Assembly (NCBI GenBank): GCA_017522185.1
Contig: JAFWZZ010000014.1
Coordinates: 21,604 to 85,603 of the forward strand
Source: Bacillota bacterium
Lineage (GTDB): Bacteria; Bacillota; Clostridia; Peptostreptococcales; Anaerovoracaceae
Length of the DNA: 64,000 bases
Direction of reading: 5' to 3'
Part shown: positions 30,886 through 64,000 of the stretch, piece after piece
Position numbering within the stretch: position 1 is the first letter of the stretch
Layout of the letters: each line of letters begins with the position of its first letter
Program-made: the position numbers and the translations under genes
The notes under the pieces: model-generated
Databases searched by the model: none
What the model was told of the DNA's origin: nothing
What the model saw: the letters and a program-made list of their open reading frames with translations, nothing else

Positions 30886-33468
30886 ATGTTTGCGAAAGTA
30901 AAAAAATCAATCGCTTTGGTGTTAGCATTGGCAGTAGCATTTACATTCATGCCAGTTGCAAGCGATGTAGTTTATGCAGCAACAGATAACTCTAAGACAT
31001 ATTTAGAATTATATACAGATGAGAATGCTACAAAGACTACAACAGAGTTTGTATATAACTCTTGTACTGCAAAAGCCGATGGCACAACTTACGCTACAAC
31101 ACCAGTTTACATTAAGGCAAACTGCGTAGCAACAGGCGAAAATGATCCATGGATCGGCATTTACAGAGGATCCTTTGATGAAAAGGTTTGGGCTGCAAAA
31201 ACAGGCGAAGCATCCAGCTTGATTTGGGCTTATGCTGAAAAGACAGATGGTAAACAGACTAAGGCTTATAACGGCAGCAAGGCTGTAAACATGATGGATG
31301 GAGGCGGTTACCAGAACTGGGGTTTCGGAAGCTGGACATTAGGCCTTGGCGACTATACCGTAATTCTGTTCAAGGATGTAAACTCCTATGAACCTGTTGC
31401 GTTCAAACAGTTCAGCGTTGTGAAAGGCTCTGCGTCAATTCCAACCGTTACTTTATTATCCGATGAACATGCGGCAACACCACTTACAAGAGAACATCTT
31501 CCAGGTGTTGAAATTTATGACTTCTACACACTGGGCAAGGGAATGAAGGTAAAAGTGGACATCCCTGCAGGTTATAAGAATGAAGGTATGTGGCTTGCAG
31601 TGTACTCAGGTACAAACAGTGGTGCAAACAGTACGGTTTATGAAGACGGCTACTTTGCTTACTGCTATGTCAACGAAAGTAAAACTTTCGACTTCCTGGA
31701 AGAGTGTAAAGTCACAGACGGTGCGGAAACATACTTGAAGCAGGTAGCTCCTTTGAAGTTTGTATTATTTGCAAACGAAGATTTTAAAGAATTATATGAA
31801 CTGAGCACTACATTCTTCTTCCTGCGTGAAGACGGATCCGATTCCAAGCTGGAACTGAAATCAACAGAGCTGACTTACACAGGTCAGGCACAGGTTCCTG
31901 CAGGCGGTAACGATACATACAGCGACAGACATTTCACTATCGAACTTGCACCAGGCACAAACGGTACCGATGTAGGTACACACAAGGCATACGCAAAATT
32001 CCATGGCGAAGTTGGTGGTCAGACAGCGGCTGTATCTTATAAAATCGTTGAGAAGAACATTGGTGACAAAGATGTTACGGTAGAAATTGCGGACGTTAAG
32101 GATACAGGTTCTGCAGTTACTGCCAACCCGGTGATTAAGTTCAACGGAATGACATTAGAAGAAGGCAAAGATTTCACAATCAATTATGCCAATAACGTAA
32201 AGGCTGGTAAGGCTTCCGCTACAATCGTAGGTAAAGGAAACTATACCGGAACTCGTGCAGCATCCTTCAACATCGTACATACATGGAAAGATGCAACATG
32301 CTCCGCACCAAAGACTTGCACAGGATGTAAAGAAACCGAAGGTGCAGCTTTAGCACATACATTTATAGCGGCAACATGTACAACACCAAAGACATGTTCC
32401 GTATGTACAGCAACAGAAGGCGCAGCTTTAGGACATAGCTGGACAGCAGCAACATGTACAGCTGCGAAGGCATGCTCCAGATGTACAGCAACAGAAGGCG
32501 CAGCTTTAGGACACAACTGGACAGCAGCAACATGTACAGCTGCGAAGGCATGCTCCAGATGTACAGCAACAGAAGGCGCAGCTTTAGGACATAGCTGGGC
32601 AGCAGCAACATGTACAACTCCAAAGACATGCTCCACATGTACAGCAACAGAAGGCATTGCATTAGGACACGCATGGGCAGCAGCAACTTGCACAACTCCG
32701 ATGACATGTTCTACATGTGCAGCAACCGAAGGTGCAGCTTTAGATCATGCATGGACAGAAGCAACATGTGTAACTCCAAAGACTTGTACCGTATGTACAG
32801 CAACAGAAGGTGAAGCATTAGGACACGCAGTTGCAACAACAACTGTGGAAAAGGCTACAGCTACCAAAGATGGTGCGAAGACAGAGATTTGTGCTTGCGG
32901 AGAAGTTCTGAGCGAAACTGCAATCAAGGCTGCAAAGGTATCCTTATCCAAGGCTGGCGTGAACTTCACAGGAAAGAAGGTTAAGGCACCTACCGTTATC
33001 GTAAAGGACGGCAAAGGCAAGAAGATTCCAGCGAAGTACTATACAGTAGTTCAGCCTAAGAACGTGAAGCAGATGAAGGATATCGGCAGATATACTTACA
33101 CAATCAAGTTCGAGGCTACATGTCCTGAATACATGGGCACTGTAAAGGTGAACTTCGAAATCAAGCCGCTGAAGACTACAATCAAGGCTCCAGCAGCTGC
33201 AAAGAAGGCAATCACTGTGAAGTGGAAGGCAGTTCCAAAGGCAAAGAAGGCACAGGTAACAGGTTACGAAGTGCAGATTGCTACAAACAAGGCATTTACA
33301 AAGGGCGTTAAGAAGGTAAACGTGAAAGGCTTCGCTAAGACATCTGCAAAGGTGAAGGGCCTGAAGTCCAAGACAAAGTACTTTGTAAAGGTTAGAACTT
33401 ACAAGACTGTAAAGGGTGTAAAGATTTACTCCGACTGGTCCAAGGTAAAAAACTGCAAGGCTAAATAA
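30886..33468 (+). CDS. Secreted modular protein P1 (860 aa): 2 WVGLYK-like modules, Ig/MBG-like modules, 7 Cys3-His mini-modules, Lys-rich FN3
   Basis: It has a signal peptide (MFAKVKKSIALVLALAVAFTFMPVASDVVYA). The modules were identified by internal repetition and by similarity to the downstream genes. Confidence 0.85.
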   Translation: MFAKVKKSIALVLALAVAFTFMPVASDVVYAATDNSKTYLELYTDENATKTTTEFVYNSCTAKADGTTYATTPVYIKANCVATGENDPWIGIYRGSFDEKVWAAKTGEASSLIWAYAEKTDGKQTKAYNGSKAVNMMDGGGYQNWGFGSWTLGLGDYTVILFKDVNSYEPVAFKQFSVVKGSASIPTVTLLSDEHAATPLTREHLPGVEIYDFYTLGKGMKVKVDIPAGYKNEGMWLAVYSGTNSGANSTVYEDGYFAYCYVNESKTFDFLEECKVTDGAETYLKQVAPLKFVLFANEDFKELYELSTTFFFLREDGSDSKLELKSTELTYTGQAQVPAGGNDTYSDRHFTIELAPGTNGTDVGTHKAYAKFHGEVGGQTAAVSYKIVEKNIGDKDVTVEIADVKDTGSAVTANPVIKFNGMTLEEGKDFTINYANNVKAGKASATIVGKGNYTGTRAASFNIVHTWKDATCSAPKTCTGCKETEGAALAHTFIAATCTTPKTCSVCTATEGAALGHSWTAATCTAAKACSRCTATEGAALGHNWTAATCTAAKACSRCTATEGAALGHSWAAATCTTPKTCSTCTATEGIALGHAWAAATCTTPMTCSTCAATEGAALDHAWTEATCVTPKTCTVCTATEGEALGHAVATTTVEKATATKDGAKTEICACGEVLSETAIKAAKVSLSKAGVNFTGKKVKAPTVIVKDGKGKKIPAKYYTVVQPKNVKQMKDIGRYTYTIKFEATCPEYMGTVKVNFEIKPLKTTIKAPAAAKKAITVKWKAVPKAKKAQVTGYEVQIATNKAFTKGVKKVNVKGFAKTSAKVKGLKSKTKYFVKVRTYKTVKGVKIYSDWSKVKNCKAK
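32278..32937 (+). repeat. Array of seven 26-aa Cys3-His modules plus a degenerate cap module; includes a near-perfect 78-nt tandem duplication (32440-32517 / 32518-32595)
   Basis: The module consensus is xWxxATCTxPKTCSxCTATEGAALGH. The two 78-nt copies differ at only 3 positions. Confidence 0.9.
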
Positions 33469-33509
33469 ATCATTAAGGATTTATCAAAAACTAAAATGAT
33501 CATAAAAAA

Positions 33510-33543
33510 GGAGATTTGACTTCAGCGTCAGATCTCCTTTTTC
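33510..33543 (+). terminator. Rho-independent terminator after P1
   Basis: GGAGATTTGAC-TTCAGC-GTCAGATCTCC (one mismatch) followed by TTTTT. Confidence 0.75.
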
Positions 33544-33549
33544 TATATC

Positions 33550-33683: not shown

Positions 33684-36600
33684 ATGAAACGTATGAAACG
33701 ACTAAAGATTCTAATCCCGTTTATCATGGTTTTCCTTATGATAATGGGTGCAGAATCTGTTTCAGCTGCTGTCAGCACAGAGTTTTTGAGCAGCACTGAT
33801 GACATTACGGTTATTAGCTCTACAGCACATGATATCATTTATGGTGTGCGAGAAGGGGAGCTGGTCTTGCAGAAGTCTAACGGCGGCAAGGTAAAAGCTC
33901 ACGTTATCCTGGTAAAACCGTATGCAAAAGCAAAGTTTAAGGCAATTACACCAGGATATTATAAATCAGGAAGTACCAAGGCGACCAGAACTGCCGCAGG
34001 GTACTCCTTTACCTGGGGACTGCGAAGCGTTTCCGGCATGGTATCAGAGTATAACAGTGCGGCTGATACGGGAGCCAATCCGGTATTAGCAGCAGTCAAT
34101 GGAGACTTCTTCGTTGGATCCAGTCCAAGAGGTTCCGTCATCATGGAAGGTAGAGAATATATCGGTCCATATGGCGGTTATTCTTATGAGTATTTTTTTG
34201 CGAAGAAGTCTGACGGCGCCATAGGCATACTGGAACGTACAAGTCCACAGAAGAGCGTTGTCGAAGAAGCAATCTGTGGTCCTATGCACATTCTGTACAA
34301 TGGCCAGCTGAACGGCGTGGATAAGGAAGTAGTTGAAAGACAGAGAACCGGGGTTGCGATTAAGCCGAACGGTGACACTCTTATGATTACCGTAGAATCC
34401 GGTATCAGCGTAAAACATCTTGCGAAGCTCATGCAGGCATCCGGTTGCTGGAACGGATTGAATCTGGACGGCGGTGGTTCCATCACGTTCTTATCAAAGA
34501 GAAACGGCGGAACCCTGACAAAAAGAACGCCATCTCCAGGCTCCGGTTATCCTCTGGAAGGCGGAGAAAGAAAAGTATCTACTGCGCTGATGCTGGTAGC
34601 AGATAACAACGCAGTTGCAAACAATGTAAATACACCGAGCACACCTTCCCTTACAGTAGATAAGACGAAATATACCTGTGGGGAACCGATTAAGGTTACT
34701 GCCAGCACCGACAAAAAAGGCGCATGGGTAGGTCTCTATAAGGAAGGTGACGACATCAATTCCATGCCATCCTACTTCTGGTACTATACTTATGGGGTCA
34801 ATCAGTATCAGGCCTGGAGCTGGGAAAGCGGAAAAACCTATGACATTTTTACCGAGGGACAGTGCAACAATAGAGATGGTGCAGTCTCTGCAGGGACGCT
34901 TCCTGTAGGTAAGTACAAAGTCGTGCTGATCGATGACAGCACAGGCACAAGAAAGGTCCTGGCAAGTAAGTCCATCACTGTAGTGGCCGATACAGCCTCT
35001 TTCTCCATTAAGACGGATAAGGATGTGTATGCGGTAGGCGACCCAATCATGACCACCATGACGGCACCAGTTTCTGCAACGAATGCGTGGGCAGGTATCG
35101 TTGAGCACGGAGCAAAGGTTGATGATACTTATCCTACCTTCTTCTGGTATTACAACAGATTGGAAAACAGCGGCATCCAGCATGAAAACGGGGTTGCATA
35201 TAATATTCTGAAGCAGAGTATGATTGGCGACATCCCGTCAAAAGTCAATGGGGCTTTAATTGATAAAAATCAACGAATATTGAAGGCTGGAAAGTATGAT
35301 ATTTCTGTTTTCCTGACAGAGACAAACTATTCGGCAGTTGCAACAAAGACTATTACCATTGTCGACCCGAATACCTCATACAAAATTACATATAAAGATA
35401 AAGACGGGAAAACCCTGAGCGGACTTACCCCCTCTTCCTATACCTATAATACGGCCAAACTGGGCGCCGTCGCGCTGCCAAAGACAGCCACTAAGACTGG
35501 CTATAATTTTGGCGGATGGTACACTAACTCCGGACTGACGGGTCAATCGGTTACATCGATTCCAAAGGATAGTACGGGAGACAAGGTTTTCTACGCCAAG
35601 TTTGACCCGAAGACCTATGATGTATATTTCGATTCCAAGGGTGGAACCGAAGTTGCGAACCAGGTCGTATCTTACGGAAAGACTGCAACAGCACCAACGA
35701 ATCCGACAAGAGCTGGATATACTTTTGACGGCTGGACAACCTCTAGCAGCGGCAGCGGAACCAGCTTCAATTTCAGCACGACGATTACATCTAATATTAC
35801 GCTGTATGCGAAATGGAAAGCAAACGGCTATTCCATTACATATAAAGATGGATCTACTACCATGACAGGGTTATCCCCTACAAGCTATACCGTAGAAGCA
35901 GCAACCACGCTGCCGACTGCGGCAAAAACGGGCTATACCTTCTTGGGATGGTATGACAATGCAGACGGCACGGGCAGTGCGATTACAGTGCTTCCGAAGG
36001 GAAGTACCGGCAATAAGACTTTCTATGCAAAGTTTAAGGTTAACACTTATACAGTCACTTTTGATACCAAGGGTGGATCCAAAGTGCCATCCGTGAGTAT
36101 TAAATATGACAAGAATCTTGAAGAAGAGGAAAAGATCCCACCCAACCCGACTAAAACAGGTTATACCTTCAAGGGATGGGTGACTGCATCCGGCAGTAAG
36201 TACAATTTCAGTACGAAAGTTACAGGAAACATAACCATTTACGCGAAATGGGAGGAAAACAAATATACTGTAACCTTTAACTCTGAGGGAGGATCTAATG
36301 TAACATCCCAGACGGTTACCTACGGCCAGAAGGCCAGCGTGCCGACGAATCCAACGAGAAAAGGATACAATTTTGGAGGCTGGGTAACCACATCCGGCGG
36401 AACTACGGCATTCAACTTTAACAATGCCATTACGACAAACGTGACAGCCTTTGCGAAATGGAACCCAATCACCTACAAAATTTCCTTTGAATCCAACGGC
36501 GGAACAACCGTTGCTTACAAAGAATACACCATTGAAAGTGCAACGATTACACTTCCGACCATTTCCAAAACTGGATATAACTTTGGAGGATGGTATTCCA

Positions 36601-39600
36601 ATTCTGCCTGCAGCGGTAGTGCCGTAACCAAAGTGGCGAAGGGCAGCACAGGCAATAAGACATTCTATGCGAAATGGACGGCGAAAACCTATACGGTGAC
36701 CTTCGATACCAAGGGCGGATCCCAAGTGGATGCGGTAGAAGTCAGCTATGGAAGCACCGTATCAGAACCGGGAACACCGACAAGAACGGGCTACACCTTT
36801 GAAAAATGGGAAACTTCATCCGGCGGGCTTTTCAATTTCGCGACAGCCATTACGACAGACACAACCATCTATGCAAAGTGGAAGCGAAACACTTATACTG
36901 TTCGCTTCGATACAGACGGCGGTTCTGCTATTGACTCTCAAAGCGTCCTGTACGAAGGAAAGGTCGCACGCCCTGCGAATAATCCTACCAAGTTAGCTTA
37001 TAGCTTTGTGGGATGGGTGACGACTAAAGGCGGAACCGAGACCTTTGACTTCAATCAGGAGATTCTTGGGGATACTATCGTTTACGCGAAATGGAAACTG
37101 AAGGATAAGTATACGGTTTCCTTTGTGACTGGCAGTGAGTCAGTACCTGAGAACCAGGCGGTTCAGGAAGGCAAGATGGCAACGAAGCCTGCAACACCAG
37201 AGAAAAACGGATTTAATTTTGAAAACTGGTATAAAGATGCAGACTTGACGGAAGCGTTCGACTTTAGCGATCCAATTATGGGCAATACCACAATCTATGC
37301 TAAATGGAATCCCGTTTTCTATAACATTACATACAATGCCAACGGCGGTGATCCGGTTCAGGCTGACACTTACACCATCGAAACAGAGACCTTTGTATTG
37401 CCGAGCACGACAAAGAATGGATATCGTTTCTTAGGTTGGAAGGCTGCCGATGGAACACCATATACCAGCATTGAGAAGGGGTCAACCGGTAATTTAAGTC
37501 TGACTGCAAGATGGCAGGAAATTAAGAATATTGCCATCGATAAACCAGAGTACAACTTTGAAGATACAATCCACGTAACCACCAACTATGAGAAGGCTGG
37601 CGCATGGGTCGGCCTGTACAAGGTGGGAGAGACACCGGGAGCAGATAATTACATCCTGAAGTATGATGTGCCTGCAGCCGGTACAACAGAAGACCTGTAT
37701 ACTTCAAGACGTGTAACACGCAACGAAGCACGAAATGAATTTTATAAGGACACCGGAAAACTCAAGTCCGGTGCATACGAAATCTATATTTTTAAGGATA
37801 GCGGAACAGAGATCCTTGAAAAGATGTACTTCTCCATTGCTACGAAAATGGATGGGGAACCGGTTGTAACCCTGGCCAACTGTACCAAGGCTGGCGTTAC
37901 GACGATTTACTACACAGACGGTACAGTTGTCATGAGTGACAGCAAGTCCGCACTGGGTCATGATCTGGTATCGGCAACTTGTGAGGACAAGGGATATTGC
38001 CAGAGAGAAGGTTGTGACTATGAGACCGGTCTTGCTCTGGGACACAAGATGGAACTTGTTACAGAGAAAGCATCCAGCTGTACGGAAGACGGCAATGTCC
38101 GTCATTATGTCTGCGAACAATGCGACGGATACTTTGAGGATGAGGGTGGAACAAAGCCATTGGATAATGTGGTGATTTCTGCACCCGGACATAACATGAC
38201 TCATCATAATCAGGTTAATCCAACCTGTGAAGAGGACGGAACCAAAGGTTATTATTACTGTGACGCATGTCAGGTGCTTTTCGAAGACGAAGACGGTAAG
38301 TTTGTATTAGAGGATATCGTCATCGAGAAGACCGGCCATGTAGAAGGCGAGGCGGCAACCTGTACACAGCCACAGCACTGTGCTGTTTGCGATGAAGAAC
38401 TGCAGCCTGCACTAGGCCATACAGAAGGACCTGCCGCAACCTGCACGACAGATCAGAACTGTACGGTTTGCGGGGAACTCCTTGCAAAGGCCTTTGATCA
38501 TACGGCAGGCGCAGCACCAAGTTGCACAGAGGCACAGAGATGTATCACATGCGAAGAAGTTCTGAATGATGCATTGGGCCACAAGATAAAGGAACGCAGC
38601 TTATGTACAGAAAAGTACCAGTGTTCCGTATGTAATAAAGTATTGGCAGAAGGTAACGACCACGTACCGGGAGCAGCAGCAACCTGTACGACGCCACAGC
38701 GCTGCCTGGAATGCAGTTATGTCATAGAGGCTGTCAAACCGCATGATTTCTCACCGGCAAACTGTCAGTCAGAAAAAACCTGCTGGACCTGCGGTAAGAA
38801 GGAAGGCAGTTTAGGCGGACACGTTGCCGACAAGGATGCTCCAACCTGCACAGAAGGTCAGTACTGTACGATTTGTGATAAGCAGTTATCCAAGGCATTG
38901 GGCCACAAAAAAGGTGCTGCGGCGACTTGTACGACAGACCAGAACTGTACGGCATGCGGCGAGCTGCTTGTGAAAGCATTCGGTCATACGGAAGGTGCAG
39001 CAGCAACCTGCATGACTCCGCAGAAGTGTTTAGTATGTCAGCTTGTCCTGGAAGAACCGGATCCATTGCTGCATGAATCAGATTCTCTGGCAACCTGCAC
39101 GAAAGACCAGATTTGTAAAGTCTGCAAAGAGGTACTGTCAGAGGCACACGGCCATACGGAAAGTGTTGTAAAGGGTCAGGAACCAACCTGTACGGAAACA
39201 GGCTTGACTGATGGCAAAATGTGTTCCGTATGTTTGGTAACCTTACAGGAGAGAGAAATCATTCCTGCAAACGGACATAATCCTGGTGCACCAGCGACAT
39301 GTCTGACAACACAGCGATGCATGACTTGCCAGGCGGTTCTGGAAGGTACCGTAGATCATATCCCTGGTCCTGCAGCTACATGCACCACAGCCCAGAGCTG
39401 TACGGAATGTGGTCATGCACTGGTTCCAGGAACAGGACACAGCGCAGGTGCAAAGGCAACCTGTACGACACCGCAGACCTGCAAAAAGTGCGATACTGTG
39501 CTGAAGAAGGCACTGGGACATGCATGGATTAAGGGCAGCTGCACGGAAGATACTACATGCAGCCGCTGCGATGAAAGAATTGCGGCACCGGGTCATACAT

Positions 39601-40829: not shown

Positions 40830-40973
40830 ATGACTTTTCGGCGGGGTGCTGAATGCAAAGTACTCCGCCTGTAAGTAAATAATTTTCTAATTAGAAAAAC
40901 CCCGGCCAGATGTAAACAGGCAGGGTGTAGTCTATGGGAAAACATGGTTTTCCACAAAAGAAGGGAGAAAAAA

Positions 40974-54367: not shown

Positions 54368-57300
54368 ATGGAAAAAGTGCGAGAAAGCAAAATGTTGCGG
54401 CTTTGTGCTATCCTGATTGCAGTGGCAGTAGCGATTACGTCAATTGCAGTCAGCGTAGACGATATTTATGCTGCAACAGCACCAGCCAAGGTGAAAAACC
54501 TGAAGATGGTAAGCAAGACCAAGACTTCTTTCGACATTAAATGGTCAAAAGTGAAGAAAGCGAAGTCTTATCAGATTGCCTACAAAAAAGTGGGTGCAAA
54601 GAAATATACATACAAAAAGACAAGTAACGTACAGTATTCTATAAAGAAACTGCAGTCCGGCACCAAATACAAGGTGAAGGTACGTGCACTAAATGGCAAG
54701 AAATATGGTGCGTGGAGTGCAGAAAAAACCTTGAAGACCAAAACTGCTAAGCAGCCTGCAAAAGTGCAGAATCTGCGGTTGGATGATAAAACAGCATCTT
54801 CCATCAAGGTTAGATGGGACAAGGTGAAGTATGCGGAAAAATATCAGGTTGGATATAAGAAAGTTGGTGCGAAGAATTACACCATCGTTTCTACCAAGAA
54901 CCTTTATCGCACAATCTCTAAGCTGAAGACAGATACGGCGTATTATGTCAAAGTCCGTGCAGTCAACGGCAGCAAGTATAGTGGATGGACCACGGCGAAA
55001 AAAATCACAACACAGATTGATTATACCAAGGCAGAAACGGAAACGGATATCGTTATTAGTGCCACTTCGGATAAAATCAAGATTGATATCAAATCCCTTG
55101 GTCTTAATGGAACTGGAACGCTGTACAGAGTCAGTCCAAACAGCTATCTGAAGGCTGACAAAAATAGCGGTCTTGTCGAAGAAGATGTGAATGGTTCCAA
55201 GATTGGCACGTTCAAAATGAATAAGAAGGCTACCTTTAGCATTTCTAGAACAACCAATTCCGGATACGATAAGATTTACGATAAGTTCTATGTTGTATCC
55301 AATGGCAACATCATCAAGGGCCCAATCTATGTAACAGAGATTGAAGCCTTAAGAGGAAGTGTAACCCTGGACGTTCCATCCAAGAAAGGTCTGGCAGACG
55401 AATTGGACGAAAAGTCTTTTGAAGTCGCTGAAGATGTTGGCTCCAACTGGGCTGTGCTGAATATCGACTTTACGCAGCTGCTGCTGGCCAACGAGGATAA
55501 AAACGGAAATCCGATTGATAACTCCGATGGCAATGTGGACACTATTGATGTTAATGGCAAAACTTACTATATCAATAAAAATTATGTTAGTACTCTGGAC
55601 TATAGAATATCCAGATACAGCAAGATGGATATGAACATTGTTGGTATTGTGGTATCTTTCGTTGAGAGCCCGGGAACTAGCACTTATCCAAGTGCCCTGA
55701 AGTATATTGATGATGCAAGATGGACCAACGGTTTTAATACCTCTACTGAGGTGGGCCGTGACTACTTTATCGCAGGCATGGAATACATTGCAAACAGATA
55801 TTCCAAGGGAAACAGGGGATGCATCTGTAATTACATTATTGGTAACGAAATCGACTACAGTTACGACTGGTATGAAATCATGCCAAACGACAGTGAGAGC
55901 GGTAAGAAACTTCCACCTAGAGGGTCCAAATACTTAAGAGACGGAGAAATCGAAACAAGAGCACCTTTTGATACATTTATGGAAGAATATTCAAGAACCC
56001 TGCGTATTGCAAATACGGCAGTAAAGCAGTATTCCGATGATATCACTGTAGGTGTCAGCTTATCCAAAGAATGGATAAAGAGCAAAGGTGAACAGCAAGG
56101 TGCACAGCCTACTACCAATAAGAGATATGACTCCTACAGACCGAGAGAAGTTCTTGACTGGTTAAACTACTACACCAAGAAGAGCGGTGACTTTGACTGG
56201 TCTGTGACCCAGCATAACTATCCGGTAGCAAATGGTAACACTTCTGCAGTGGAAACAGGCTTAACCGGAAAGAAGGCGGTTATTACCGGTGATCCGGATA
56301 CGACTACAATGATTACCCAGAACAATTTGGAAGTCCTGCAGTTATATCTGGACAGATCTTACAGTCTGCATGACGGCAAGGCAAGAGACATATACCTGAC
56401 TGAAAACGGATCCAGTACCGGCTCAGAAGTTGGTACGCCTAGCATTGAGATGCAGAAAGAGCAGGCAGCTGCAATAGCACAACACTATTACAGAGCTGCA
56501 TCCCTTCCATCTGTAAAGGCGATTATTTATTTTAAGATTAATGATAGAGAGGTAGAAGGGTCCACTTCCTTCAAGCTGGGTCTTTTTGACACGACTGGCA
56601 AAAAGAAACTGTCCTATGATTTATGGAAGTACATCGATACGTCTCGGTCTTTCGACATTTCCGAGAAGTATTTAGGCAGCCTTACTTTCCTAAAAGATGG
56701 AAAAGAATATAGCGCTGCAAAGGGAAATATCAACTCCTACCTTGACATTTTGAATATGGTAAACAGTGACTATGATTGGGAAAAGGTGTGGGATGAAGAC
56801 GCATTGACACCGGTGAAACTTGTTGAAACAGTCGATACGACAGGCTTGATTACAGACAAGGATGTTTACGGTGCAGATGACCCAATTCTGGTAACTGCGT
56901 CCGGTTCTTCTACGGATGTAGTCGGCTTGTATAAGCGTGGAGAAACCGTTGCTAATTCACCAATTTACAGTTACGAAGTTGGCGGGGAAAAGAACGGAAT
57001 CCAATTTAAATCCGGAACACAGTATGACATTAGAGCATATGGCGATGTAAATCTGGACAGACTTGAAGACGCGAAACTTCCTGCTGGTGAATATACCATT
57101 ATCTTGAGCTCTATAAAAGACGAAGAACTGCTGAGAAAGGATATCACCATCACAGGCACTTCTGCTTTTGACGGAAAGAAGACCGTTAGCACAGATAAGA
57201 AGAACTATGTCGTTGGCGAAAACATTATTATTACAGCCAGCGGCAGCGACAAGGACTGGGTAGGTGTTTACAAGAAGGGTGACCATCCTGGTCTTCCAGA

Positions 57301-58963
57301 AAATGGCGGATCATCCTCCATCGATTGGTACTATGTAGCAAGTGAAACCCAGATTTCAGGTAAACCATATATTATGAAGACTGGTGAAAAGGCCGGCAGC
57401 GCTTCATCTGGAGTTCTGCCTGCAGGTGAGTACTATATCGTCCTAATGGAAAACGACACCTATACGGAGCTGGCAAGAGTCGATGACATTGTTGTTTCTC
57501 CAAAAGAAGCAGAAAATCTAGTTTCTATCTCTTATGAACTGGAAAACGAAACCGATGGTTTTGCAAACGGTGTCGTGACCATCACCAAGAGAGAAGGCGC
57601 AGATACGAAGGCATGCCTGCTTTATTGGGCGGACGAAAACGGAACCCCATTAGAGGGCTATACTGCTTTAGGAAAGACGAAGCTGACTGGCACAGTAACC
57701 AAGGAAAAGATGCAGGCAAATACCATCATTCCGCCAGGAGCTAAGACACTGGTTGCTTATGCATTAAGCAATGACGTGAAATCTTCAGAGGCAGTCGTAA
57801 CCAAGCTGCCAGAAGGTGCAGCATATCAGTTTGAAGACGAAAGCAAGGAAACAGCACGTTTCGTTATCGGTAGTGACTTGCATCTGGTTGAAAGAGGAAA
57901 ACTCAACGAAATCGATGTTGATTCAAACGGACATTTCAAAACGGCATTAGAAGATGCAGCCAAGAACTTACCTGGCGCGTCCGGTTTCTTTGTAAACGGC
58001 GATATTACCGATGCTGGTAAGGCAAGTCAGTACAAAGAAGCCATGAACATTTTGATGGGCGTGGAAGGCGCACCGGATTTACATCTGGCGATCGGTAACC
58101 ACGACTGGTACGAAGGTAACCCAGATGGTCAGTTCCAGAAATATGCCAACTGGTTTAACCCTGCAATCGAAACGGAAACCGTTTACTACGACGAATGGGT
58201 AGACGGATACCACTTCATCTACCTGGGCGGCGAAGAGTTCCAGCACTATGCTGTAATGAGCGATGAGCAGTTGAACTGGCTGGATGAGTTACTGGCGGCG
58301 GATGAAGAAGCCGGTCACAACAAACCGACCTTTGTCTTCCTGCACCAGGGTCTGCAGGACTCCATGGCAGGTAACTTCCTTGGCCAGTGGGGTTATGACT
58401 CCAAATACGGTGTAGGAAAGGATCAGCAGCTGAGAAACATTCTGTCTAAGTACGGACAGGTTATCTTATTTGGCGGTCACACCCATTATGCATTAGATTC
58501 AGACAACTCTATCACACCAGGAAGCGAAGATTTACCTGTATGTGTGAATACATCATCTGTTTCTTACCTGTGGGATGCTTTCAATATCGATACAGGTGAA
58601 TACAGAGAAGGTTCTGAAAGCTACCATGTAAGAGCGTTCGAAGACAAATTATACATGTTCGGCAGAAACCATCTTACAGGCGAATACGTGTCATCCGCAC
58701 TCTATGTACTCGAGTATGCCGATTTATCTGTGGAACACACAGAAATCAGTATGCATGTTGGAGACGACAGCATCCAGATTGATGCAAAAGCAGAAGAAGG
58801 TATGCAGCTGTCATACAGATCTTCTAACAACAAGGTTGTAGCGGTTGACTACAGAGGACATATTAGACCGGTTGCACCAGGAACTGCGAAAATCTATGTT
58901 TCCACAGAAAGTTCCAACACAAAAACAATAAACCGTAGGACCATTACGGTAACGGTAGAATAA
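54368..58963 (+). CDS. Secreted giant protein P5 (1531 aa): 2 N-terminal Lys-rich FN3 domains, unknown beta region, clan-GH-A-like TIM-barrel domain, 2 WVGLYK modules, metallophosphoesterase domain, Big_2-like Ig
   Basis: Signal peptide present. The FN3 pattern is (S)xxIKWxKV...YQ(I/V)xYKK...YxVKVRA. The GH-like motifs are IIGNEIDY and YLTENGSS. The MPE motifs are GSDLH, GDITD, GNHD, FLHQ and GGHTH. The C-terminal 700 aa are paralogous to the P4 N-terminus. Confidence 0.85.
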   Translation: MEKVRESKMLRLCAILIAVAVAITSIAVSVDDIYAATAPAKVKNLKMVSKTKTSFDIKWSKVKKAKSYQIAYKKVGAKKYTYKKTSNVQYSIKKLQSGTKYKVKVRALNGKKYGAWSAEKTLKTKTAKQPAKVQNLRLDDKTASSIKVRWDKVKYAEKYQVGYKKVGAKNYTIVSTKNLYRTISKLKTDTAYYVKVRAVNGSKYSGWTTAKKITTQIDYTKAETETDIVISATSDKIKIDIKSLGLNGTGTLYRVSPNSYLKADKNSGLVEEDVNGSKIGTFKMNKKATFSISRTTNSGYDKIYDKFYVVSNGNIIKGPIYVTEIEALRGSVTLDVPSKKGLADELDEKSFEVAEDVGSNWAVLNIDFTQLLLANEDKNGNPIDNSDGNVDTIDVNGKTYYINKNYVSTLDYRISRYSKMDMNIVGIVVSFVESPGTSTYPSALKYIDDARWTNGFNTSTEVGRDYFIAGMEYIANRYSKGNRGCICNYIIGNEIDYSYDWYEIMPNDSESGKKLPPRGSKYLRDGEIETRAPFDTFMEEYSRTLRIANTAVKQYSDDITVGVSLSKEWIKSKGEQQGAQPTTNKRYDSYRPREVLDWLNYYTKKSGDFDWSVTQHNYPVANGNTSAVETGLTGKKAVITGDPDTTTMITQNNLEVLQLYLDRSYSLHDGKARDIYLTENGSSTGSEVGTPSIEMQKEQAAAIAQHYYRAASLPSVKAIIYFKINDREVEGSTSFKLGLFDTTGKKKLSYDLWKYIDTSRSFDISEKYLGSLTFLKDGKEYSAAKGNINSYLDILNMVNSDYDWEKVWDEDALTPVKLVETVDTTGLITDKDVYGADDPILVTASGSSTDVVGLYKRGETVANSPIYSYEVGGEKNGIQFKSGTQYDIRAYGDVNLDRLEDAKLPAGEYTIILSSIKDEELLRKDITITGTSAFDGKKTVSTDKKNYVVGENIIITASGSDKDWVGVYKKGDHPGLPENGGSSSIDWYYVASETQISGKPYIMKTGEKAGSASSGVLPAGEYYIVLMENDTYTELARVDDIVVSPKEAENLVSISYELENETDGFANGVVTITKREGADTKACLLYWADENGTPLEGYTALGKTKLTGTVTKEKMQANTIIPPGAKTLVAYALSNDVKSSEAVVTKLPEGAAYQFEDESKETARFVIGSDLHLVERGKLNEIDVDSNGHFKTALEDAAKNLPGASGFFVNGDITDAGKASQYKEAMNILMGVEGAPDLHLAIGNHDWYEGNPDGQFQKYANWFNPAIETETVYYDEWVDGYHFIYLGGEEFQHYAVMSDEQLNWLDELLAADEEAGHNKPTFVFLHQGLQDSMAGNFLGQWGYDSKYGVGKDQQLRNILSKYGQVILFGGHTHYALDSDNSITPGSEDLPVCVNTSSVSYLWDAFNIDTGEYREGSESYHVRAFEDKLYMFGRNHLTGEYVSSALYVLEYADLSVEHTEISMHVGDDSIQIDAKAEEGMQLSYRSSNNKVVAVDYRGHIRPVAPGTAKIYVSTESSNTKTINRRTITVTVE

Positions 58964-58977
58964 AGGAGGAGAAAGCG

Positions 58978-60921
58978 ATGAAAAACATTCATACACAGAT
59001 GAGAAGATTCCTTTCTCTGATGCTGGCATTGGTTATGGTTACAGCATGCATGTCGCCATTTACCATGGAAACATACGCTGAAGCCAGCGATGCCTTGAGT
59101 CTGACACTGTCAGATCCAAGTAAGACAACTTATATGCAAAAAGAACCGATTCATATCAAAGCCACAGGCACTGCATCTGGTGCCTGGGTCGGCTTATATG
59201 AAAAGGATGATCTCGACAAGTTAGGAACTGTTCCGGTATATCGTTGGTATTACATCGCAGACTATAACGGCAAGGAAGTCGATATTACTGCACAAGAATT
59301 CCTGGATGGACCGAATAGAGGCAATATTGACGTAGGCGAGTATGTTATCGTACTTTTTGGAGATGGCGGTTACGAAAAGATTGTAAAGAAAATCGAAATC
59401 AGCGTGGTCAAAAATCCAAATTATGTGCCAGGTCAGGATATGTCCATGAAGCTGGTCAATGAAACAAAGACTACCTACAAGCTGGGTGAACCGATTCTGG
59501 TCAAAGCCTCTGGCACTGATGCAGGCGCCTGGGTTGGTTTATACGGAAAAGATGAAATAGAGGACGTTGGAGCTGTTTCATCCTACCGTTGGTACTATGT
59601 TTGGGAATACAATGACAAAGAGGTCGATTTAACAAGAGTGAATCTAGACCAAAGCCTTAGACAGCGTTTAGAAGAGGGCGAGTATGCCATCATGCTTTTT
59701 GCTGATGAAGGATACGGACAAGTTGTGAAAACGATTCCGATTACGATTTCCGGAACCATCGATATCAGCCCAAGTCAATTTGAGCTTGAAGTAGAAAAGA
59801 CAGAGTACAAATATGGTGAAAACGTTATGGTAAGAGCAACCGGCACAGGCATTTTTGACGGTGCATGGGTTGGGCTTTATCCTGCAAACACTGAAAACTA
59901 TGAAGGTACATATTTGCGTTACTACTACGTGAAGAACAAAGAAAACCAGTTTGTAGCGATACAGGGACAGGCTGCAGGGAAGATAGAGACCACAAAACTA
60001 GACGAAGGAAAGTACAAACTCGTCCTGTTTGCCGATGATAGTTACAAATACCCGGTAAAATCCGTGGAATTTACGGTAACAAGAGACAGAGCATCTACCA
60101 AGGTGCTTCGTGAACCGGGCTGTGTTACATTCGGTAAGGAATCCGTTGTATATCAGGATGGTTACACCGAAATCAGAGAAATCCAACCATTGGGCGGACA
60201 CATTTGGGGTGAAAACATCCACGTGGAAGGCACAACGAAGCATCAGCAGGCTTGTCAGCGTCCAGGATGCGAAAGAACAAAAACAACGGCATGCGTTATG
60301 GACGCAGGCGTTGTAACCAAGGCTGCCAAGGTATCCAAAACAGGGGAAAGAACCTTTACCTGTGAGAGCTGCGGCCATGTTGTGACTGCATCCATTGCAG
60401 CCATCGAGAAGGCACCGAAACTTTCTGCTACCAGTCTCACCTACAATGGAAAAGACAGAAAGCCGGCAGTAAAGGCACTTTACGATACAAACGGAGAGCT
60501 GATTGCAAAGAAATTTTATACCGTTCAGTACGAATCCTCCTGCAAAAAGGTGGGTGCGTATAAGGCAACGGTGACTTTCAAGGGTGATTATGCGGGTACG
60601 TATACTTTATCCTATAAGATTAACCCAAAAGCAGTTACACTCAAGAGTTTGACTGCCGGAAAGAAGTCCATTAAAGTGAAATGGAACAAAGCTACAGCTG
60701 AAACAAGCGGATACCGAATCGCATATTCGACGAACAAGAATTTTAAGAACGTCAAGTATGTAAAGGTTACGAAAAAGAGCCAGGCTGTAAAGACGATTAA
60801 GAATCTGAAGGCTGGCAAGAAGTATTATGTGAAGATTCGTGCATATAAGACTTCTGGAGGAAAGACTTACTATTCCGCATGGAGTAAGGTAAAATCTGTT
60901 ACTACCAAAAAGAAGGGATGA
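58978..60921 (+). CDS. Secreted protein P6 (647 aa): 3 WVGLYK modules, degenerate Cys modules, Ig/MBG-like module, Lys-rich FN3
   Basis: An AAAGGAGGAG RBS sits in the 14-nt gap after P5. A signal peptide is present. The signature AWVGLY occurs three times. Confidence 0.85.
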   Translation: MKNIHTQMRRFLSLMLALVMVTACMSPFTMETYAEASDALSLTLSDPSKTTYMQKEPIHIKATGTASGAWVGLYEKDDLDKLGTVPVYRWYYIADYNGKEVDITAQEFLDGPNRGNIDVGEYVIVLFGDGGYEKIVKKIEISVVKNPNYVPGQDMSMKLVNETKTTYKLGEPILVKASGTDAGAWVGLYGKDEIEDVGAVSSYRWYYVWEYNDKEVDLTRVNLDQSLRQRLEEGEYAIMLFADEGYGQVVKTIPITISGTIDISPSQFELEVEKTEYKYGENVMVRATGTGIFDGAWVGLYPANTENYEGTYLRYYYVKNKENQFVAIQGQAAGKIETTKLDEGKYKLVLFADDSYKYPVKSVEFTVTRDRASTKVLREPGCVTFGKESVVYQDGYTEIREIQPLGGHIWGENIHVEGTTKHQQACQRPGCERTKTTACVMDAGVVTKAAKVSKTGERTFTCESCGHVVTASIAAIEKAPKLSATSLTYNGKDRKPAVKALYDTNGELIAKKFYTVQYESSCKKVGAYKATVTFKGDYAGTYTLSYKINPKAVTLKSLTAGKKSIKVKWNKATAETSGYRIAYSTNKNFKNVKYVKVTKKSQAVKTIKNLKAGKKYYVKIRAYKTSGGKTYYSAWSKVKSVTTKKKG

Positions 60922-60935
60922 GAAGGAGTAGATAA

Positions 60936-63900
60936 ATGAAGTATAAAAAACCATTGAAAATACTGCTTTCTTTGATACTAGTCTGTACGATGATTATGGA
61001 CGTTACACTGGTATCGGCTGCGGCAACCACATCCACCAACTTATTATCCAGTGAGTCTGAATATTCACTTACTACAGATAAGACGGAGTATTTAGTGGGT
61101 GAGCCAATCAATGTTACTGCGCATGCGCCATCTGGACGTAATGCGTGGGTGGGCATTGTAAAGAGCGGAAGAACATTCACTGCAGCAGACGGTCCGTCCT
61201 ATTATTGGGCTTACGTGCCAAGCGGCGGCGATGAATTTAATCTTATGGCACCCCAAAACGAGGTGTACGATGAGCATTATGCCAATCTGCCTGCCGATGA
61301 ACAGGCACTGATCGACCTGAAAAAACACCAGTTAATGCCAGGGGAATATGATGTTGTTCTGTTCCGTGACGGAGGTTATTCCGTTGTTGAGAGAAAGACG
61401 ATCACCATAGATGCAGAATACGACATTACTTATATGCATGGTGATGAGCCTTTAACTGGCTTGACTCCTACTGTATATCGTCATTCGAAAGCAAAGAATG
61501 CAGCGATTACGCTTCCGAAAAACGTAGCAAAAGAAGGGTATACTTTTGTTGCGTGGTACGAGACAGCTGAATTGAAGGGAAATCCGGTGACTTCCATTGC
61601 AAAGGGAAGCTCTGGTGACAAAACTTACTATGCAAAATTTAACACATTTTCCTATGAAGTAACATTCGATACAGACGGTGGAAACGTTGTTGAGAAGCAG
61701 ACCGTGTCTCACGATCAATATGTGACTCGTCCGGCAGATCCAGAGAAGGACGGCTTTGTTTTCCTTGACTGGGTTACTGCAAAGAATGGAACTACGCCGT
61801 TTGACTTCAGCAAGCCGATTACAGGCAATGTAACCGTGTATGCTGCATGGGTGGCAGAAGGTGCAAAGCTTGTTCAGTTTGAAACTGGTGGAGGCAGTGC
61901 GGTTCTGACACAGAGTGTGATGCCTGGAAATAAGGCAGTGAAGCCGGAAAATCCAAAACGCCAGCATTACACTTTTGACAAATGGGTAACGGCGAAAGAC
62001 GGTGATCAGGAATTCAATTTTAATACAGTAATCGAGGCTGATACCACCATCTACGCAAAATGGAAACCTGTAAACTATCAGATTACCTTCGATGCAAACG
62101 GCGGAAGTGCTGTTTCCAAGAAGACCTATACCATTGAAACAAGCAGTTTTACACTTCCAACGTCTACAAGAGAGGGTTATGCTTTCAAAGGATGGAAGGA
62201 TGCAAACGGAAAGTCCTATACAACCATTGAAAAAGGAACTGCAGGTAATCTATCTCTGACTGCACAGTGGGAGAGACAGACCTCTCTCTTAGTCAGTGGT
62301 ACAACCCATTACGCAGGGGATCCGATTTATGTTGATGCATATTGTGAATCCGATGGTGCATGGGTCGGCTTGTACGGAAAAAATGATACACCAGGGGTTG
62401 CAGAAGCAATTAACTGGTACTATGTAGATGAATATCTTGGAGAAAAAGTAAATCTTGCCAAGATGAACAGTATCGACAGAGCAATCACACCTGGAGAGTA
62501 CAAGATTATTCTTTACGGAGATCCAAGCTATAATGTGATTCTGAAGACTGTAAACATTACGATGCAGAAACACCCAAACCCTACAAAGGGGGATTTGAAG
62601 ATCTCCGGGTATTCCAGATCTGATAAGGCATATAACGGTGTTGCTGAATCAGAAAGACAGAGAACCCTGTACGACTACTTCTATGGTGATGCGATTACGG
62701 TAGAAGCGACGTTAAGCGGCAGCAATACGGAAGGTGCATGGATTGGCATCCTGGGAGATGTCGATTACAGCATTGGAAGAACAAGCGGCTTTATTGGAAC
62801 AAACTGGTTCTATGTTGAAGATTTTGCAGGACAGAAAGTCAATCTGAACTATGTAACAGAAAGTGTACTTTCTGCGGATGCGACGCCAATTGCATTTGCG
62901 TTGAATTATTGGATTGTTCTGGTAAGTGGTAACGGAACCATTTTAGATGCAGAACCAATCAATTACCGTACCTTCAATATGGACTGGTCCGGTAAAACCT
63001 GGGGTCCTGCAGTTAGCTCCAGACTATTAGTGGAAACAGAATGGTCCAGCAAGAATGCCAATGGCGAAAACCAGATGCCTGGAGTGACCATTAGACAGAT
63101 TAATGGCCATTTTGGTCTGAAAAAAGACAACACTGGCAAGCTGGTGGAAATTACAGAAGAACTTCTGGCAGAAGGCAAAGATTATACTTTAGAATACCCT
63201 GCACAAGCAAAAAATCCGGGAACCTATAACATTAAAGTGAATTTCCCAAGCTCTGGAGGAACCTACAACTATCTGAGCACGGATCCATCCACTTATGGAT
63301 TGAAAGATGGAATTCCATTCTACCTGACATCCAGCGCCAATGAATATGCAATTACATATCATCTCAATGGCGGTGTAAACCATGATGACAATCCATCTTT
63401 CTATAAGACCGGATCTGAAATTGTTTTGAAGTCACCAACTAGAAGTGATTATGTATTTGCCGGCTGGTATACGACCCATGATTTCAAAGAAGGAACCCAA
63501 ATCGAAAAGATTTCCGCAAATTCTGCATCCGATATTGCGCTCTATGCAAAGTGGATCAATGAAACAGAAGCAACCTACAAAATTGCATATGTACTCAATG
63601 GCGGCGAAAATAATCTAAACAACCCTACTGGTTATACAGGTGTTGTTGATGTAAACCTTAAGGCAGCAAGAAAAGCCGGATACACCTTTGACGGATGGTT
63701 CCTGGATGCAGCATTCACAAAAGCGGCAAACGTACTGCCAAAAGGCATGACTGGGGACGTTACTCTGTATGCGAAGTTTACAAAAGGAGAAACAAAGGAT
63801 AAGGTAAGAGTAGATACTTCTGTCAAAGGCGGAAGCATTACTGGAGACGTATACGGCAATGCCGGGGACACTGTGACTATCACATATAAGCCAAGCAATG

Positions 63901-64000
63901 ATTATAAGCTTGACAGCGTGGTAGTAGACGGCGTAAACATGGACATTACCAAGTATCCATCTTCCTATACCTTTGAAAATGTGACTGGCGACCACCATAT
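60936..64000 (+). CDS. Secreted giant protein P7, 3'-truncated by the window edge (more than 1021 aa): WVGLYK-like modules interleaved with at least 6 Listeria-Bacteroides repeats
   Basis: This ORF is absent from the supplied track because it has no stop in the window. I translated it by hand from the ATG at 60936 (GAAGGAG RBS, 14 nt after the P6 stop) and it stays open to base 64000. It begins with a signal peptide (MKYKKPLKILLSLILVCTMIMDVTLVSAAA). Confidence 0.8.
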   Translation, partial: MKYKKPLKILLSLILVCTMIMDVTLVSAAATTSTNLLSSESEYSLTTDKTEYLVGEPINVTAHAPSGRNAWVGIVKSGRTFTAADGPSYYWAYVPSGGDEFNLMAPQNEVYDEHYANLPADEQALIDLKKHQLMPGEYDVVLFRDGGYSVVERKTITIDAEYDITYMHGDEPLTGLTPTVYRHSKAKNAAITLPKNVAKEGYTFVAWYETAELKGNPVTSIAKGSSGDKTYYAKFNTFSYEVTFDTDGGNVVEKQTVSHDQYVTRPADPEKDGFVFLDWVTAKNGTTPFDFSKPITGNVTVYAAWVAEGAKLVQFETGGGSAVLTQSVMPGNKAVKPENPKRQHYTFDKWVTAKDGDQEFNFNTVIEADTTIYAKWKPVNYQITFDANGGSAVSKKTYTIETSSFTLPTSTREGYAFKGWKDANGKSYTTIEKGTAGNLSLTAQWERQTSLLVSGTTHYAGDPIYVDAYCESDGAWVGLYGKNDTPGVAEAINWYYVDEYLGEKVNLAKMNSIDRAITPGEYKIILYGDPSYNVILKTVNITMQKHPNPTKGDLKISGYSRSDKAYNGVAESERQRTLYDYFYGDAITVEATLSGSNTEGAWIGILGDVDYSIGRTSGFIGTNWFYVEDFAGQKVNLNYVTESVLSADATPIAFALNYWIVLVSGNGTILDAEPINYRTFNMDWSGKTWGPAVSSRLLVETEWSSKNANGENQMPGVTIRQINGHFGLKKDNTGKLVEITEELLAEGKDYTLEYPAQAKNPGTYNIKVNFPSSGGTYNYLSTDPSTYGLKDGIPFYLTSSANEYAITYHLNGGVNHDDNPSFYKTGSEIVLKSPTRSDYVFAGWYTTHDFKEGTQIEKISANSASDIALYAKWINETEATYKIAYVLNGGENNLNNPTGYTGVVDVNLKAARKAGYTFDGWFLDAAFTKAANVLPKGMTGDVTLYAKFTKGETKDKVRVDTSVKGGSITGDVYGNAGDTVTITYKPSNDYKLDSVVVDGVNMDITKYPSSYTFENVTGDHH

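Follow-up and report, generated by a model that had tools for sequence, protein, structure and literature searches.

The Cwp family of Clostridioides difficile consists of surface proteins that are anchored through CWB2 domains, which bind the anionic polymer PSII. Other modules that target proteins non-covalently to the Gram-positive cell wall are GW, WxL, SLH and, in Ruminococcus albus, CBM37, and proteins carrying WxL or CBM37 occur in multi-gene sets. This report concerns a tandem array of seven genes, here designated P1 to P7, which occupies positions 30886-64000 of a 64,000-nucleotide stretch (the window, i.e., that stretch as a whole) of a contig from the metagenome-assembled genome of an uncultured, gut-type bacterium of the Clostridia (Bacillota). 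We consider with moderate confidence that the array encodes seven Sec-exported, wall-associated proteins and is a counterpart of the Cwp cluster with a different shared retention module.

The resemblance to the Cwp cluster lies in a tandem set of paralogous Sec-exported proteins that have one retention module in common and differ in their functional domains; all seven genes conform to this plan, with a shared polycationic FN3 domain and varied heads. It extends to homologues colinear with P5, which carry three CWB2 repeats and belong to CWB2 arrays near wall-polysaccharide genes. In contrast to the Cwp cluster, the window contains no CWB2 domain, and the shared module is an MBG-like Ig domain followed by the polycationic FN3 domain, which is a candidate anchor only. 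The proteins are also far larger, with long spacers of Flg_new repeats and Cys3-His units, and the array has no gene for an S-layer protein. Like GW, WxL, SLH and CBM37, the FN3 domain is a module of about 100 residues that is usually C-terminal and is found on many unrelated secreted proteins of one organism. Unlike them, it combines an FN3 fold with an extreme lysine content, has no sequence match to any of the four, and is a candidate rather than an established binding module.

Two described enzyme systems are also close to the array. Cell-surface fusions of phosphoesterase and NAGPA are an already described class: calcineurin-like phosphoesterases of the cell surface are reported to form a radiation, with fusions to FN3, Ig and NAGPA domains, and cleavage of phosphoesters in teichoic acid or extracellular DNA (eDNA) was predicted for them (Updegrove et al., 2024; PMC11488536). 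P4 and P5 resemble this radiation in being secreted, in their fusion to FN3, Big_2, Flg_new and WVGLY modules, and in their predicted phosphoester substrates in the surface matrix. In ShfP (YvnB) of Bacillus subtilis, too, a signal peptide is combined with Ig/FN3-type domains in chains and with a calcineurin-like domain that has all five motifs. It differs in being a single sporulation gene rather than a tandem family; moreover, Pfam found no lamin-tail domain (LTD) in P1-P7, the phosphoesterase here is joined to DUF5722 and WVGLY. The likeness is one of domain architecture. The human uncovering enzyme NAGPA (PMC13474241) has the same catalytic fold family as P2 and the same invariant DGGGS, and the catalytic core of both proteins stands on a cysteine-rich stalk that holds it, or in P2 would hold it, off the anchoring surface. 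The human stalk is EGF-like, disulfide-bonded and ends in a transmembrane helix, whereas that of P2 is made of Flg_new and Cys3-His units, with a basic FN3 domain at its end. What we propose as new is the role of the FN3 cassette, the scale of unmodelled Cys3-His sequence, and an operon that combines DUF5722, phosphoesterase and NAGPA.

Seven secreted proteins built from shared modules

A first-pass annotation of this DNA described seven consecutive plus-strand genes for giant secreted proteins, assembled mosaically from one small module set, with nothing else interrupting the array. These observations were confirmed, and the interpretation placed on them was supported in part. The seven open reading frames (ORFs) hold 10,803 codons inside the window; their products, with domains in order from the N-terminus (aa, amino acids), are as follows.

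30886-33468, +, P1, 860 aa: signal peptide, WVGLY, unassigned beta-rich region, MBG-like Ig, 7 Cys3-His, MBG-like Ig, polycationic FN3
33684-40829, +, P2, 2381 aa (ORF open from 33600, ATG at 33684 with a ribosome-binding site, RBS): signal peptide, NAGPA head, 2 WVGLY, 10 Flg_new, WVGLY, at least 22 Cys3-His, MBG-like Ig, polycationic FN3
40944-46784, +, P3, 1946 aa (likely start at ATG 40974, which has a better RBS): signal peptide, WVGLY, WVGLY-like module, ~30-40 Cys3-His (120 Cys), MBG-like Ig, polycationic FN3
46963/46987-54237, +, P4, ~2420 aa: signal peptide, 2 WVGLY, Metallophos, Big_2, 9 Flg_new, WVGLY, 21 Cys3-His, MBG-like Ig, polycationic FN3
54368-58963, +, P5, 1531 aa, first gene of the conserved P5-P6-P7 operon: signal peptide, 2 polycationic FN3, DUF5722, 2 WVGLY, Metallophos, Big_2-like
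58978-60921, +, P6, 647 aa, the most conserved marker of the operon: signal peptide, 3 WVGLY, 2 atypical Cys/His units, MBG-like Ig, polycationic FN3
60936-64000, continuing past the window end, +, P7, 1291 aa (complete on contig L001): signal peptide, WVGLY, 4 Flg_new, 2 WVGLY, MBG-like Ig, 2 Flg_new, Ig

L001 is a metagenomic contig whose P6 is identical to that of the window, and the C-terminus of P7 beyond the window comprises three polycationic FN3 domains. Successive genes are separated by 215, 114, 199, 130, 14 and 14 bp, most starts have a good RBS, and the only other ORFs in the array are antisense, at most 335 aa long and embedded in the large genes. All seven N-termini combine a basic n-region and a hydrophobic core with an AxA-type cleavage site (VYA/A, VSA/A, AYA/A, IYA/T, IYA/A, YAEA and VSA/A), as in Sec signal peptides, and this supports the view that P1-P7 are Sec-exported mosaics.

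The WVGLY, Flg_new, MBG-like Ig and Lys-rich FN3 modules were counted with iterated hidden Markov models (HMMs) built from the window's own sequences. WVGLY beta-sandwich modules total 16, with at least one in each protein. There are 25 Flg_new (Listeria-Bacteroides) repeats, confirmed by Pfam (10 in P2, 9 in P4 and 6 in P7), together with seven MBG-like Ig and 10 Lys-rich FN3 modules in the whole array, and Pfam matched FN3 in all seven proteins. The first two module types are located at these positions.

31060-31434, 34641-35375, 37521-37853 and 41082-41423, +, WVGLY modules of P1-P3
47077-47745, 51121-51453, 56837-57511, 61059-61424 and 62277-62978, +, WVGLY modules of P4-P7, apart from those of P6
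59104-60093, +, the three WVGLY modules of P6
35379-37511, +, ten Flg_new repeats of P2
49198-51111, +, nine Flg_new repeats of P4
61419-62267 and 63345-63776, +, four and two Flg_new repeats of P7

The proteins also share long colinear segments. Residues 541-2107 of P2 are 57% identical to 646-2265 of P4, and residues 29-732 of P4 are 66% identical to 821-1530 of P5. Paralogous segments are 60-85% identical at the DNA level, indicating that the duplications are old and are not an assembly artefact, and a recent duplication origin of the modules was rejected on the same ground. We propose that the core of the array is the three-gene operon P5-P6-P7, to which P1-P4 were added through duplication and module shuffling, the head of P4 being copied from the C-terminal half of P5.

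The first-pass annotation had suggested checking the modules by HMM and structure searches. In these, the WVGLY, Cys3-His and MBG-like Ig modules gave no significant sequence match in Pfam, NCBIfam or PDB, whereas the enzyme heads, Flg_new and FN3 proved to be known Pfam families. Isolated WVGLY, Cys3-His and unassigned segments searched against Pfam to E = 10 returned nothing meaningful, and SKICH, A2M_BRD and C1_1, which appeared at this setting, were all far under cutoff. NCBIfam added to the Pfam results for the array proteins just internalin B-repeat matches below cutoff, and when P3, P5, P6, the head of P2 and a profile of DUF5722 were compared by sequence with PDB, only generic FN3 domains and one DUF2233 match came back. 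P6, for which about 30 full-length orthologues exist at 40-68% identity, was modelled with AlphaFold2 (AF2) from 31 homologues. The model is a chain of beta-sandwiches with a mean predicted local distance difference test score (pLDDT) of 85.9, in which each WVGLY module forms a single sandwich of ~110 residues. Foldseek matched this model only to multi-Ig and FN3 proteins, and with whole multi-domain models it returned generic Ig/FN3 chains only, the small modules being beyond its resolution. The WVGLY sandwiches, which would stand beside the heads or at the distal tip, are probably ligand-binding.

The Flg_new repeats match the B-repeat region of Listeria internalins. In contrast to internalins, P1-P7 contain no leucine-rich repeat (LRR) internalin domain, and Pfam found no LRR family in the array proteins. 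Identity with class 1 internalins was rejected (198 versus 1600 bits for internalin_A and 172 versus 1050 for InlH, from the B-repeat only).

A polycationic FN3 domain as candidate wall anchor

Searches of P1-P7 for established means of retention were negative. There is no LPXTG near any C-terminus and no Gram_pos_anchor match, no hydrophobic or transmembrane-like segment occurs after residue 40 (i.e., past the signal peptides), Pfam and NCBIfam detected no SLH, CWB2, choline-binding, GW/SH3 or LysM domain at E <= 0.01, and neither library matched the C-terminal domain of type IX secretion system (T9SS) substrates. Membership of the CWB2, SLH, LPXTG, choline-binding, internalin and T9SS families was rejected, the defining features of each having been tested and found absent. 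The only lipobox-like sequence among the seven proteins, VTAC in the signal peptide of P6 (58978-59080), is probably a chance match, and a lipoprotein identity for P6 was rejected because this Cys is absent from nearly all orthologues. The earlier statement that the array has no recognizable anchor stands for catalogued families; the Lys-rich FN3 domain, which was listed there as one module among others, is polycationic and may be an anchor.

FN3 modules in the window consist of 18-29% Lys and have a net charge of +13 to +29 and an isoelectric point (pI) of 10.1-10.7; outside FN3, P1-P7 are acidic (pI 4.8-6.4). The polycationic FN3 is C-terminal in six proteins and N-terminal in P5. In the five C-terminal cassettes listed here, it has 27-28% Lys, a net charge of +26 to +29 and a pI of ~10.5.

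32914-33465, +, cassette at the C-terminus of P1, composed of MBG-like Ig and polycationic FN3
40302-40826, +, same cassette in P2
46260-46781, +, same cassette in P3
53701-54234, +, same cassette in P4
60388-60918, +, same cassette in P6
54482-55009, +, polycationic FN3 pair at the N-terminus of P5, net +24 and +15

The cassette is widespread. A scan of one genome per species, which matched the C-terminal cassette only and not a full P6 orthologue, located MBG-FN3 at 40-50% identity at no fewer than 526 loci, with carriers that include Eubacterium, Lachnospiraceae, Acutalibacteraceae, Oscillospiraceae, Roseburia and Blautia, as well as Dorea hominis NSJ-36, Maccoyibacter intestinihominis and Anaerovorax odorimutans. 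Eighty Clostridia loci were kept from these at least 526 for tallies of FN3 position and of heads. Among 99 occurrences that could be evaluated, 96 had an FN3 that stopped no more than three codons short of the C-terminus, and two of the three exceptions were followed by another, terminal FN3. Homologous terminal FN3 domains (98 in number) have a median of 23% Lys and a median net charge of +24, with a minimum of +14, and nearly all of the parent ORFs inspected start with a signal peptide. The heads on 66 FN3-terminated ORFs were diverse: BspA-type LRR (18), GH25 (3) and phage lysozyme (2), with few or single cases of CHAP, transglutaminase, Metallophos, GH26, M64 peptidase, GDSL lipase and C-type lectin. 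The top 25 families of these 66 ORFs include no known anchor.

The array is not unique: comparable arrays are common in Clostridia, and CWB2-anchored equivalents exist as well. In the cultured isolate Dorea hominis NSJ-36, five consecutive same-strand genes within 15 kb (L045 1688-15435) each end in a polycationic FN3. This isolate offers an experimental handle on the anchor hypothesis.

Comparison of P5 with its homologues provides the strongest evidence that FN3 may act as an anchor. At 36-41% identity, homologues are colinear with residues 236-1530 of P5 but lack the N-terminal FN3 pair, and three CWB2 repeats form their C-terminal end. One homologue bears the annotation "cell wall-binding repeat-containing protein". 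The homologues on contigs L096 and L097 sit in arrays of four or five CWB2 proteins surrounded by genes typical of wall-polysaccharide loci (glycosyltransferases, UDP-sugar dehydrogenase, flippase, Bac_transf and MurJ). The L096 array is broken by insertion sequence elements (rve and ISL3 transposases). Because its homologues carry CWB2, the P5 family is probably wall-associated elsewhere, and FN3 appears to fill the anchor's place here. A domain that is polycationic, nearly always last, found on unrelated secreted proteins and replaced by CWB2 in P5 homologues is the obvious candidate for a non-covalent wall anchor, and it would hold each protein on the anionic wall. Literature searches found no description of a lysine-rich FN3 anchor.

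Enzyme heads and the conserved P5-P6-P7 operon

Three of the seven proteins carry enzyme domains, all of which scored above Pfam cutoffs.

34083-34595, +, NAGPA (phosphodiester glycosidase) domain of P2, residues 134-304, 80.3 bits versus a cutoff of 25
34467-34481, +, DGGGS motif of P2, residues 262-266
48079-48711, +, calcineurin-like phosphoesterase (Metallophos) of P4, with SDLH, GDITD, GNHD, LHQ and GHTH
57857-58489, +, calcineurin-like phosphoesterase (Metallophos) of P5, all five motifs intact, same set as P4
55085-56737, +, DUF5722 (PF18989) of P5, 214.3 bits versus a cutoff of 30.5, E = 3.5e-63

DGGGS is invariant and catalytic in NAGPA (PMC13474241), and the P2 head has a weak sequence match in PDB to the DUF2233 protein 3ohg. 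The Metallophos domains of P4 and P5 score 41 bits against a cutoff of 21.5, and the motifs tested were those of the calcineurin metal-binding set (DxH, GDxxD, GNH[DE], H and GHxH). DUF5722, a putative TIM-barrel glycosidase, was examined for the residue pair of clan GH-A, in which an NE supplies the acid/base and a second Glu the nucleophile; across 10 homologues its NE (GNEIDY) and TENG motifs do not vary. Since the five calcineurin motifs and DGGGS are all kept, the NAGPA and calcineurin-like heads look catalytically competent. We suggest that NAGPA of P2 would take the sugar off a sugar-1-phosphodiester, that the phosphoesterases of P4 and P5 would cut the remaining phosphoester links, and that DUF5722 of P5 would cut a glycosidic bond. 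Jointly, the three enzymes may process phosphodiester-linked glycopolymers, e.g., teichoic-acid-like ones, of the cell itself or of its neighbours.

The transcription signals of the array (consensus matches only, with strand where assigned) are as follows.

30549-30571 and 30753-30779, terminator-like hairpins between the DUF436 gene and the promoter-like site of P1
30815-30843, +, promoter-like TTGTAA-17-TATAAT 5' of P1
33505-33542, +, terminator-like hairpin 3' of P1
54222-54249, terminator-like hairpin after P4
54287-54314, +, promoter-like site with extended -10, 5' of P5

With the promoter-like site before P5 and the two 14-bp gaps that follow, P5-P6-P7 are probably a single operon. An Rfam scan found no RNA element inside the array, and no gene for a regulator or for secretion was found within it.

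The survey of synteny among relatives for which the first-pass annotation had called shows that this trio is conserved. In six diverged lineages, with P6 orthologues at 40-55% identity, the order of a P5-like gene, a P6-like gene and a NAGPA/Flg_new gene is kept; the first gene comprises FN3, DUF5722, two WVGLY and Metallophos, and the P5-P6 spacing of ~14 bp recurs. The third gene of the operon on contig L089 encodes 1702 aa that correspond to residues 1-858 of P2 (39% identity) joined to residues 43-1290 of P7 (55% identity), indicating that the NAGPA head belongs to the P7 position in the relatives. Its presence on P2 in the window is direct evidence that heads and stalks were shuffled within the family: P7 here has lost its NAGPA head, which P2 bears on a different stalk. 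Neighbours in related loci include TagF-like Glyphos_transf, GDPD, additional FN3-DUF5722 genes and GH88 proteins, two GT4 genes with an acetyltransferase and a Sulfatase/LtaS-like gene, and a GH25 giant with the same WVGLY / Cys3-His / MBG / FN3 stalk. That three enzyme types (a sugar-1-phosphodiester glycosidase, a phosphoesterase and a glycosidase-like barrel) stay linked is most readily accounted for if a sugar-phosphate glycopolymer is broken down or remodelled step by step, in line with the prediction for the wider phosphoesterase radiation (PMC11488536). An earlier suggestion that the target is a phosphodiester-containing glycan gains support from this linkage in six lineages and from the TagF-like, GDPD and LtaS-like neighbours, which are consistent with phosphodiester glycopolymers of either own or foreign origin.

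Several observations weigh against wall association and glycopolymer processing as the function of the array. The FN3 domain has no detectable similarity to proven wall-binding domains, a polycationic domain might equally bind DNA, mucin or the substrate itself, and the N-terminal FN3 pair of P5 shows that the module is not obligately C-terminal. Sequence searches with P5 and with the DUF5722 profile found no PDB relative of DUF5722, and literature searches turned up neither a mention of this family nor a characterized member. Pfam and NCBIfam recognize no catalytic domain in P1, P3, P6 and P7, so that four of the seven proteins are without a recognizable enzyme. The teichoic-acid-type neighbours vary from lineage to lineage, and the array in the window follows housekeeping genes (cdaA, glmM, glmS and AdoHcy hydrolase) rather than a wall-polymer locus.

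An alternative is that the proteins are free enzymes and binders released to the medium for external anionic substrates such as eDNA, host mucin, phosphoglycans from yeast or the diet, or the teichoic acids and capsules of other bacterial species, with FN3 targeting the substrate in the manner of a carbohydrate-binding module. The charge of FN3 is as compatible with substrate binding as with wall binding, the WVGLY modules lie at distal tips, no wall-polymer genes adjoin the array in the window, GH88 and BNR genes adjoin some of the related loci, and eDNA is among the possible substrates in the ShfP paper (PMC11488536). We regard this alternative as less likely than retention on the wall. Colinear homologues replace FN3 by CWB2, which is accepted as an anchor to the cell's own wall, and the same cassette is carried by peptidoglycan hydrolases of the GH25 and CHAP types, for which one would expect a module that binds the wall. 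The strict end position of FN3 on unrelated heads is also better suited to a generic retention tag.

A role as structural adhesins or matrix fibres for cell-cell or host attachment, with the enzyme domains as accessories, seems improbable. The conserved core is the enzyme-bearing trio, its catalytic motifs are kept across deep divergence, and P1-P7 contain no LRR or other known adhesin head. This has to be set against the four proteins that lack a catalytic domain, the model of P6 as an Ig-like chain resembling adhesion molecules, the Flg_new repeats held in common with internalins, and the BspA-type LRR as the most frequent head on the cassette.

Cys3-His units, locus surroundings and implications

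A further element of the stalks is a short module with three Cys and one His. Its arrays, counted by pattern, are located as follows.

41811-46253, +, Cys3-His array of P3, the longest in the window
32275-32835, +, Cys3-His array of P1
38079-40211, +, Cys3-His array of P2
51679-53610, +, Cys3-His array of P4

P1 has 7 units, P2 has 22, P3 has at least 30 and P4 has 21, whereas the strict pattern does not occur in P5, P6 or P7. The short form is C-x6-C-x2-C-x8-H, with a period in P1 of 26 residues (78 nt), and the long form is C-x10-C-x2-C-x14-H. Across the family the consensus reads HxWxxATCTxPKTCxxCGxTEGxALGH, and 90% or more of 97 sequences retain its three Cys and its His. In a protein library clustered at 50% identity, the seven-unit stretch of P1 matched the representatives of 6,953 clusters at E <= 1e-3 (4,132 at E <= 1e-10), in proteins of up to 6,716 residues. 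The few matches with a named source are from uncultured Clostridia, Oscillospiraceae, Ruminococcaceae and Eubacteriales, mostly as "hypothetical protein". Literature searches found no description of cysteine-rich extracellular repeats in Clostridia.

No zinc-finger family matched the unit significantly (best C1_1, E = 0.3, and RYYR-CCHC, E = 0.14). Its four conserved ligands, including a CxxCG knuckle, are nevertheless those of a zinc knuckle or zinc ribbon, and the odd number of Cys together with the invariant His and the knuckle argues for Zn(Cys3His) sites over disulfides. The units are thus probably zinc knuckles. A distribution restricted to strict anaerobes would suit extracellular free-thiol ligands, and zinc-knuckle stalks, if real, would be feasible only in such organisms. 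An AF2 model of P3 residues 1440-1946 (96 homologues; mean pLDDT 82.8) shows the Cys3-His units as short beta hairpins (pLDDT 55-88) and the last 200 residues as two confident beta sandwiches (pLDDT >90).

Elsewhere, Cys3-His arrays adjoin cohesin, dockerin, DUF11, polysaccharide deacetylase, transglutaminase, SH3, trypsin, M23, PPIase, kinase, SLH, LRR and Flg_new domains, and beside so many unrelated partners they behave as a generic spacer. In the array, Flg_new repeats and chains of Cys3-His units of 26-42 residues may accordingly space the anchor from the head. The idea that long rigid stalks hold the heads away from the wall fits P2 and P4, which have a head, a stalk and a tail, but not P5, which has no stalk, nor P1, P3, P6 and P7, which have no recognizable head; rigidity itself found no support, as AlphaFold gives confident small units and no information on stiffness between them. 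Fusions of Cys3-His arrays to cohesin, dockerin and DUF11 in other genomes could also suggest that P1-P7 are components of a cohesin-dockerin (cellulosome-like) or other scaffold in which these arrays are linkers; this is very unlikely, given that Pfam and NCBIfam found no cohesin or dockerin in P1-P7 and that the range of partner domains points to spacers of general use.

The array follows a housekeeping stretch that encodes RecD2, ComF, ABC-F, HPF, CdaA, a YbbR-domain protein, GlmM, GlmS, AdoHcy hydrolase and DUF436, and the genomic context (a cdaA-cdaR-glmM arrangement, raiA RNA and Clostridia relatives) is that of Bacillota and not of Bacteroidota, the hosts of T9SS. G+C declines from ~0.50-0.55 in the housekeeping genes to ~0.41-0.50 across ~30000-64000, which could reflect either the Lys/Thr-rich composition of the array or a foreign origin. 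The junction that leads from the DUF436 gene into P1 and P2 was recovered in independent assemblies, and the three contigs with P7 all end no more than ~300 bp past its end. Just 3' of the P7 stop, at the end of L001 (15864-16127), there is a perfect 131-bp tandem duplication, each unit of which comprises three CCAAAAT-N3-TTTGGGG hairpin-like motifs; it represents a repeat element or else a k-mer loop from assembly, and it marks the right edge of the array. A metagenome-assembled source, contigs that stop in a repeat just after P7 and a fall in G+C from ~0.52 to ~0.44 at the array start might suggest that assembly produced the array as an artefact or that its genes are decaying pseudogenes. 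This reading is effectively refuted by unbroken reading frames of up to 2,424 codons, identical genes in several independent assemblies, the divergence of the paralogous DNA noted above, and conserved orthologues and synteny.

Other features were noted farther upstream in the window.

4553-7839, +, gene for a 650-aa fusion of FHA and FtsW/RodA/SpoVE (SEDS), followed by an overlapping gene for a class B penicillin-binding protein
8673-10295, +, 540-aa ORF with zero Pfam matches, adjoined by a 554-aa ORF at 10504-12168 (-)
19997-20160, +, raiA RNA motif (Rfam RF03072), full length, 141 bits versus a gathering score of 101, between the ComF-like and ABC-F genes and ~2.4 kb 5' of the HPF/RaiA gene

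Many Clostridia of gut and rumen have large sets of giant secreted proteins without a recognized means of staying on the cell. If FN3 does anchor to the wall, a location would be assigned for hundreds of them, among which are lysozymes, LRR adhesins and an IgA-protease-type enzyme, some from cultured species. The linkage of DUF5722 to a phosphodiesterase and NAGPA provides a concrete hypothesis for the function of this family, and Cys3-His units, present in ~7,000 protein clusters without a family model, represent an annotation gap that can be closed and perhaps a rare case of extracellular zinc-thiolate domains. The fuller proposal, that the FN3 cassette is a new class of anchor interchangeable with CWB2 and that Cys3-His zinc knuckles form "beads on a string" stalks, is tentative, and we rate it as possible rather than probable. 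Should both parts be true, the operon of DUF5722-phosphoesterase, P6 and NAGPA would be a dedicated machine for the turnover of sugar-phosphate wall polymers.

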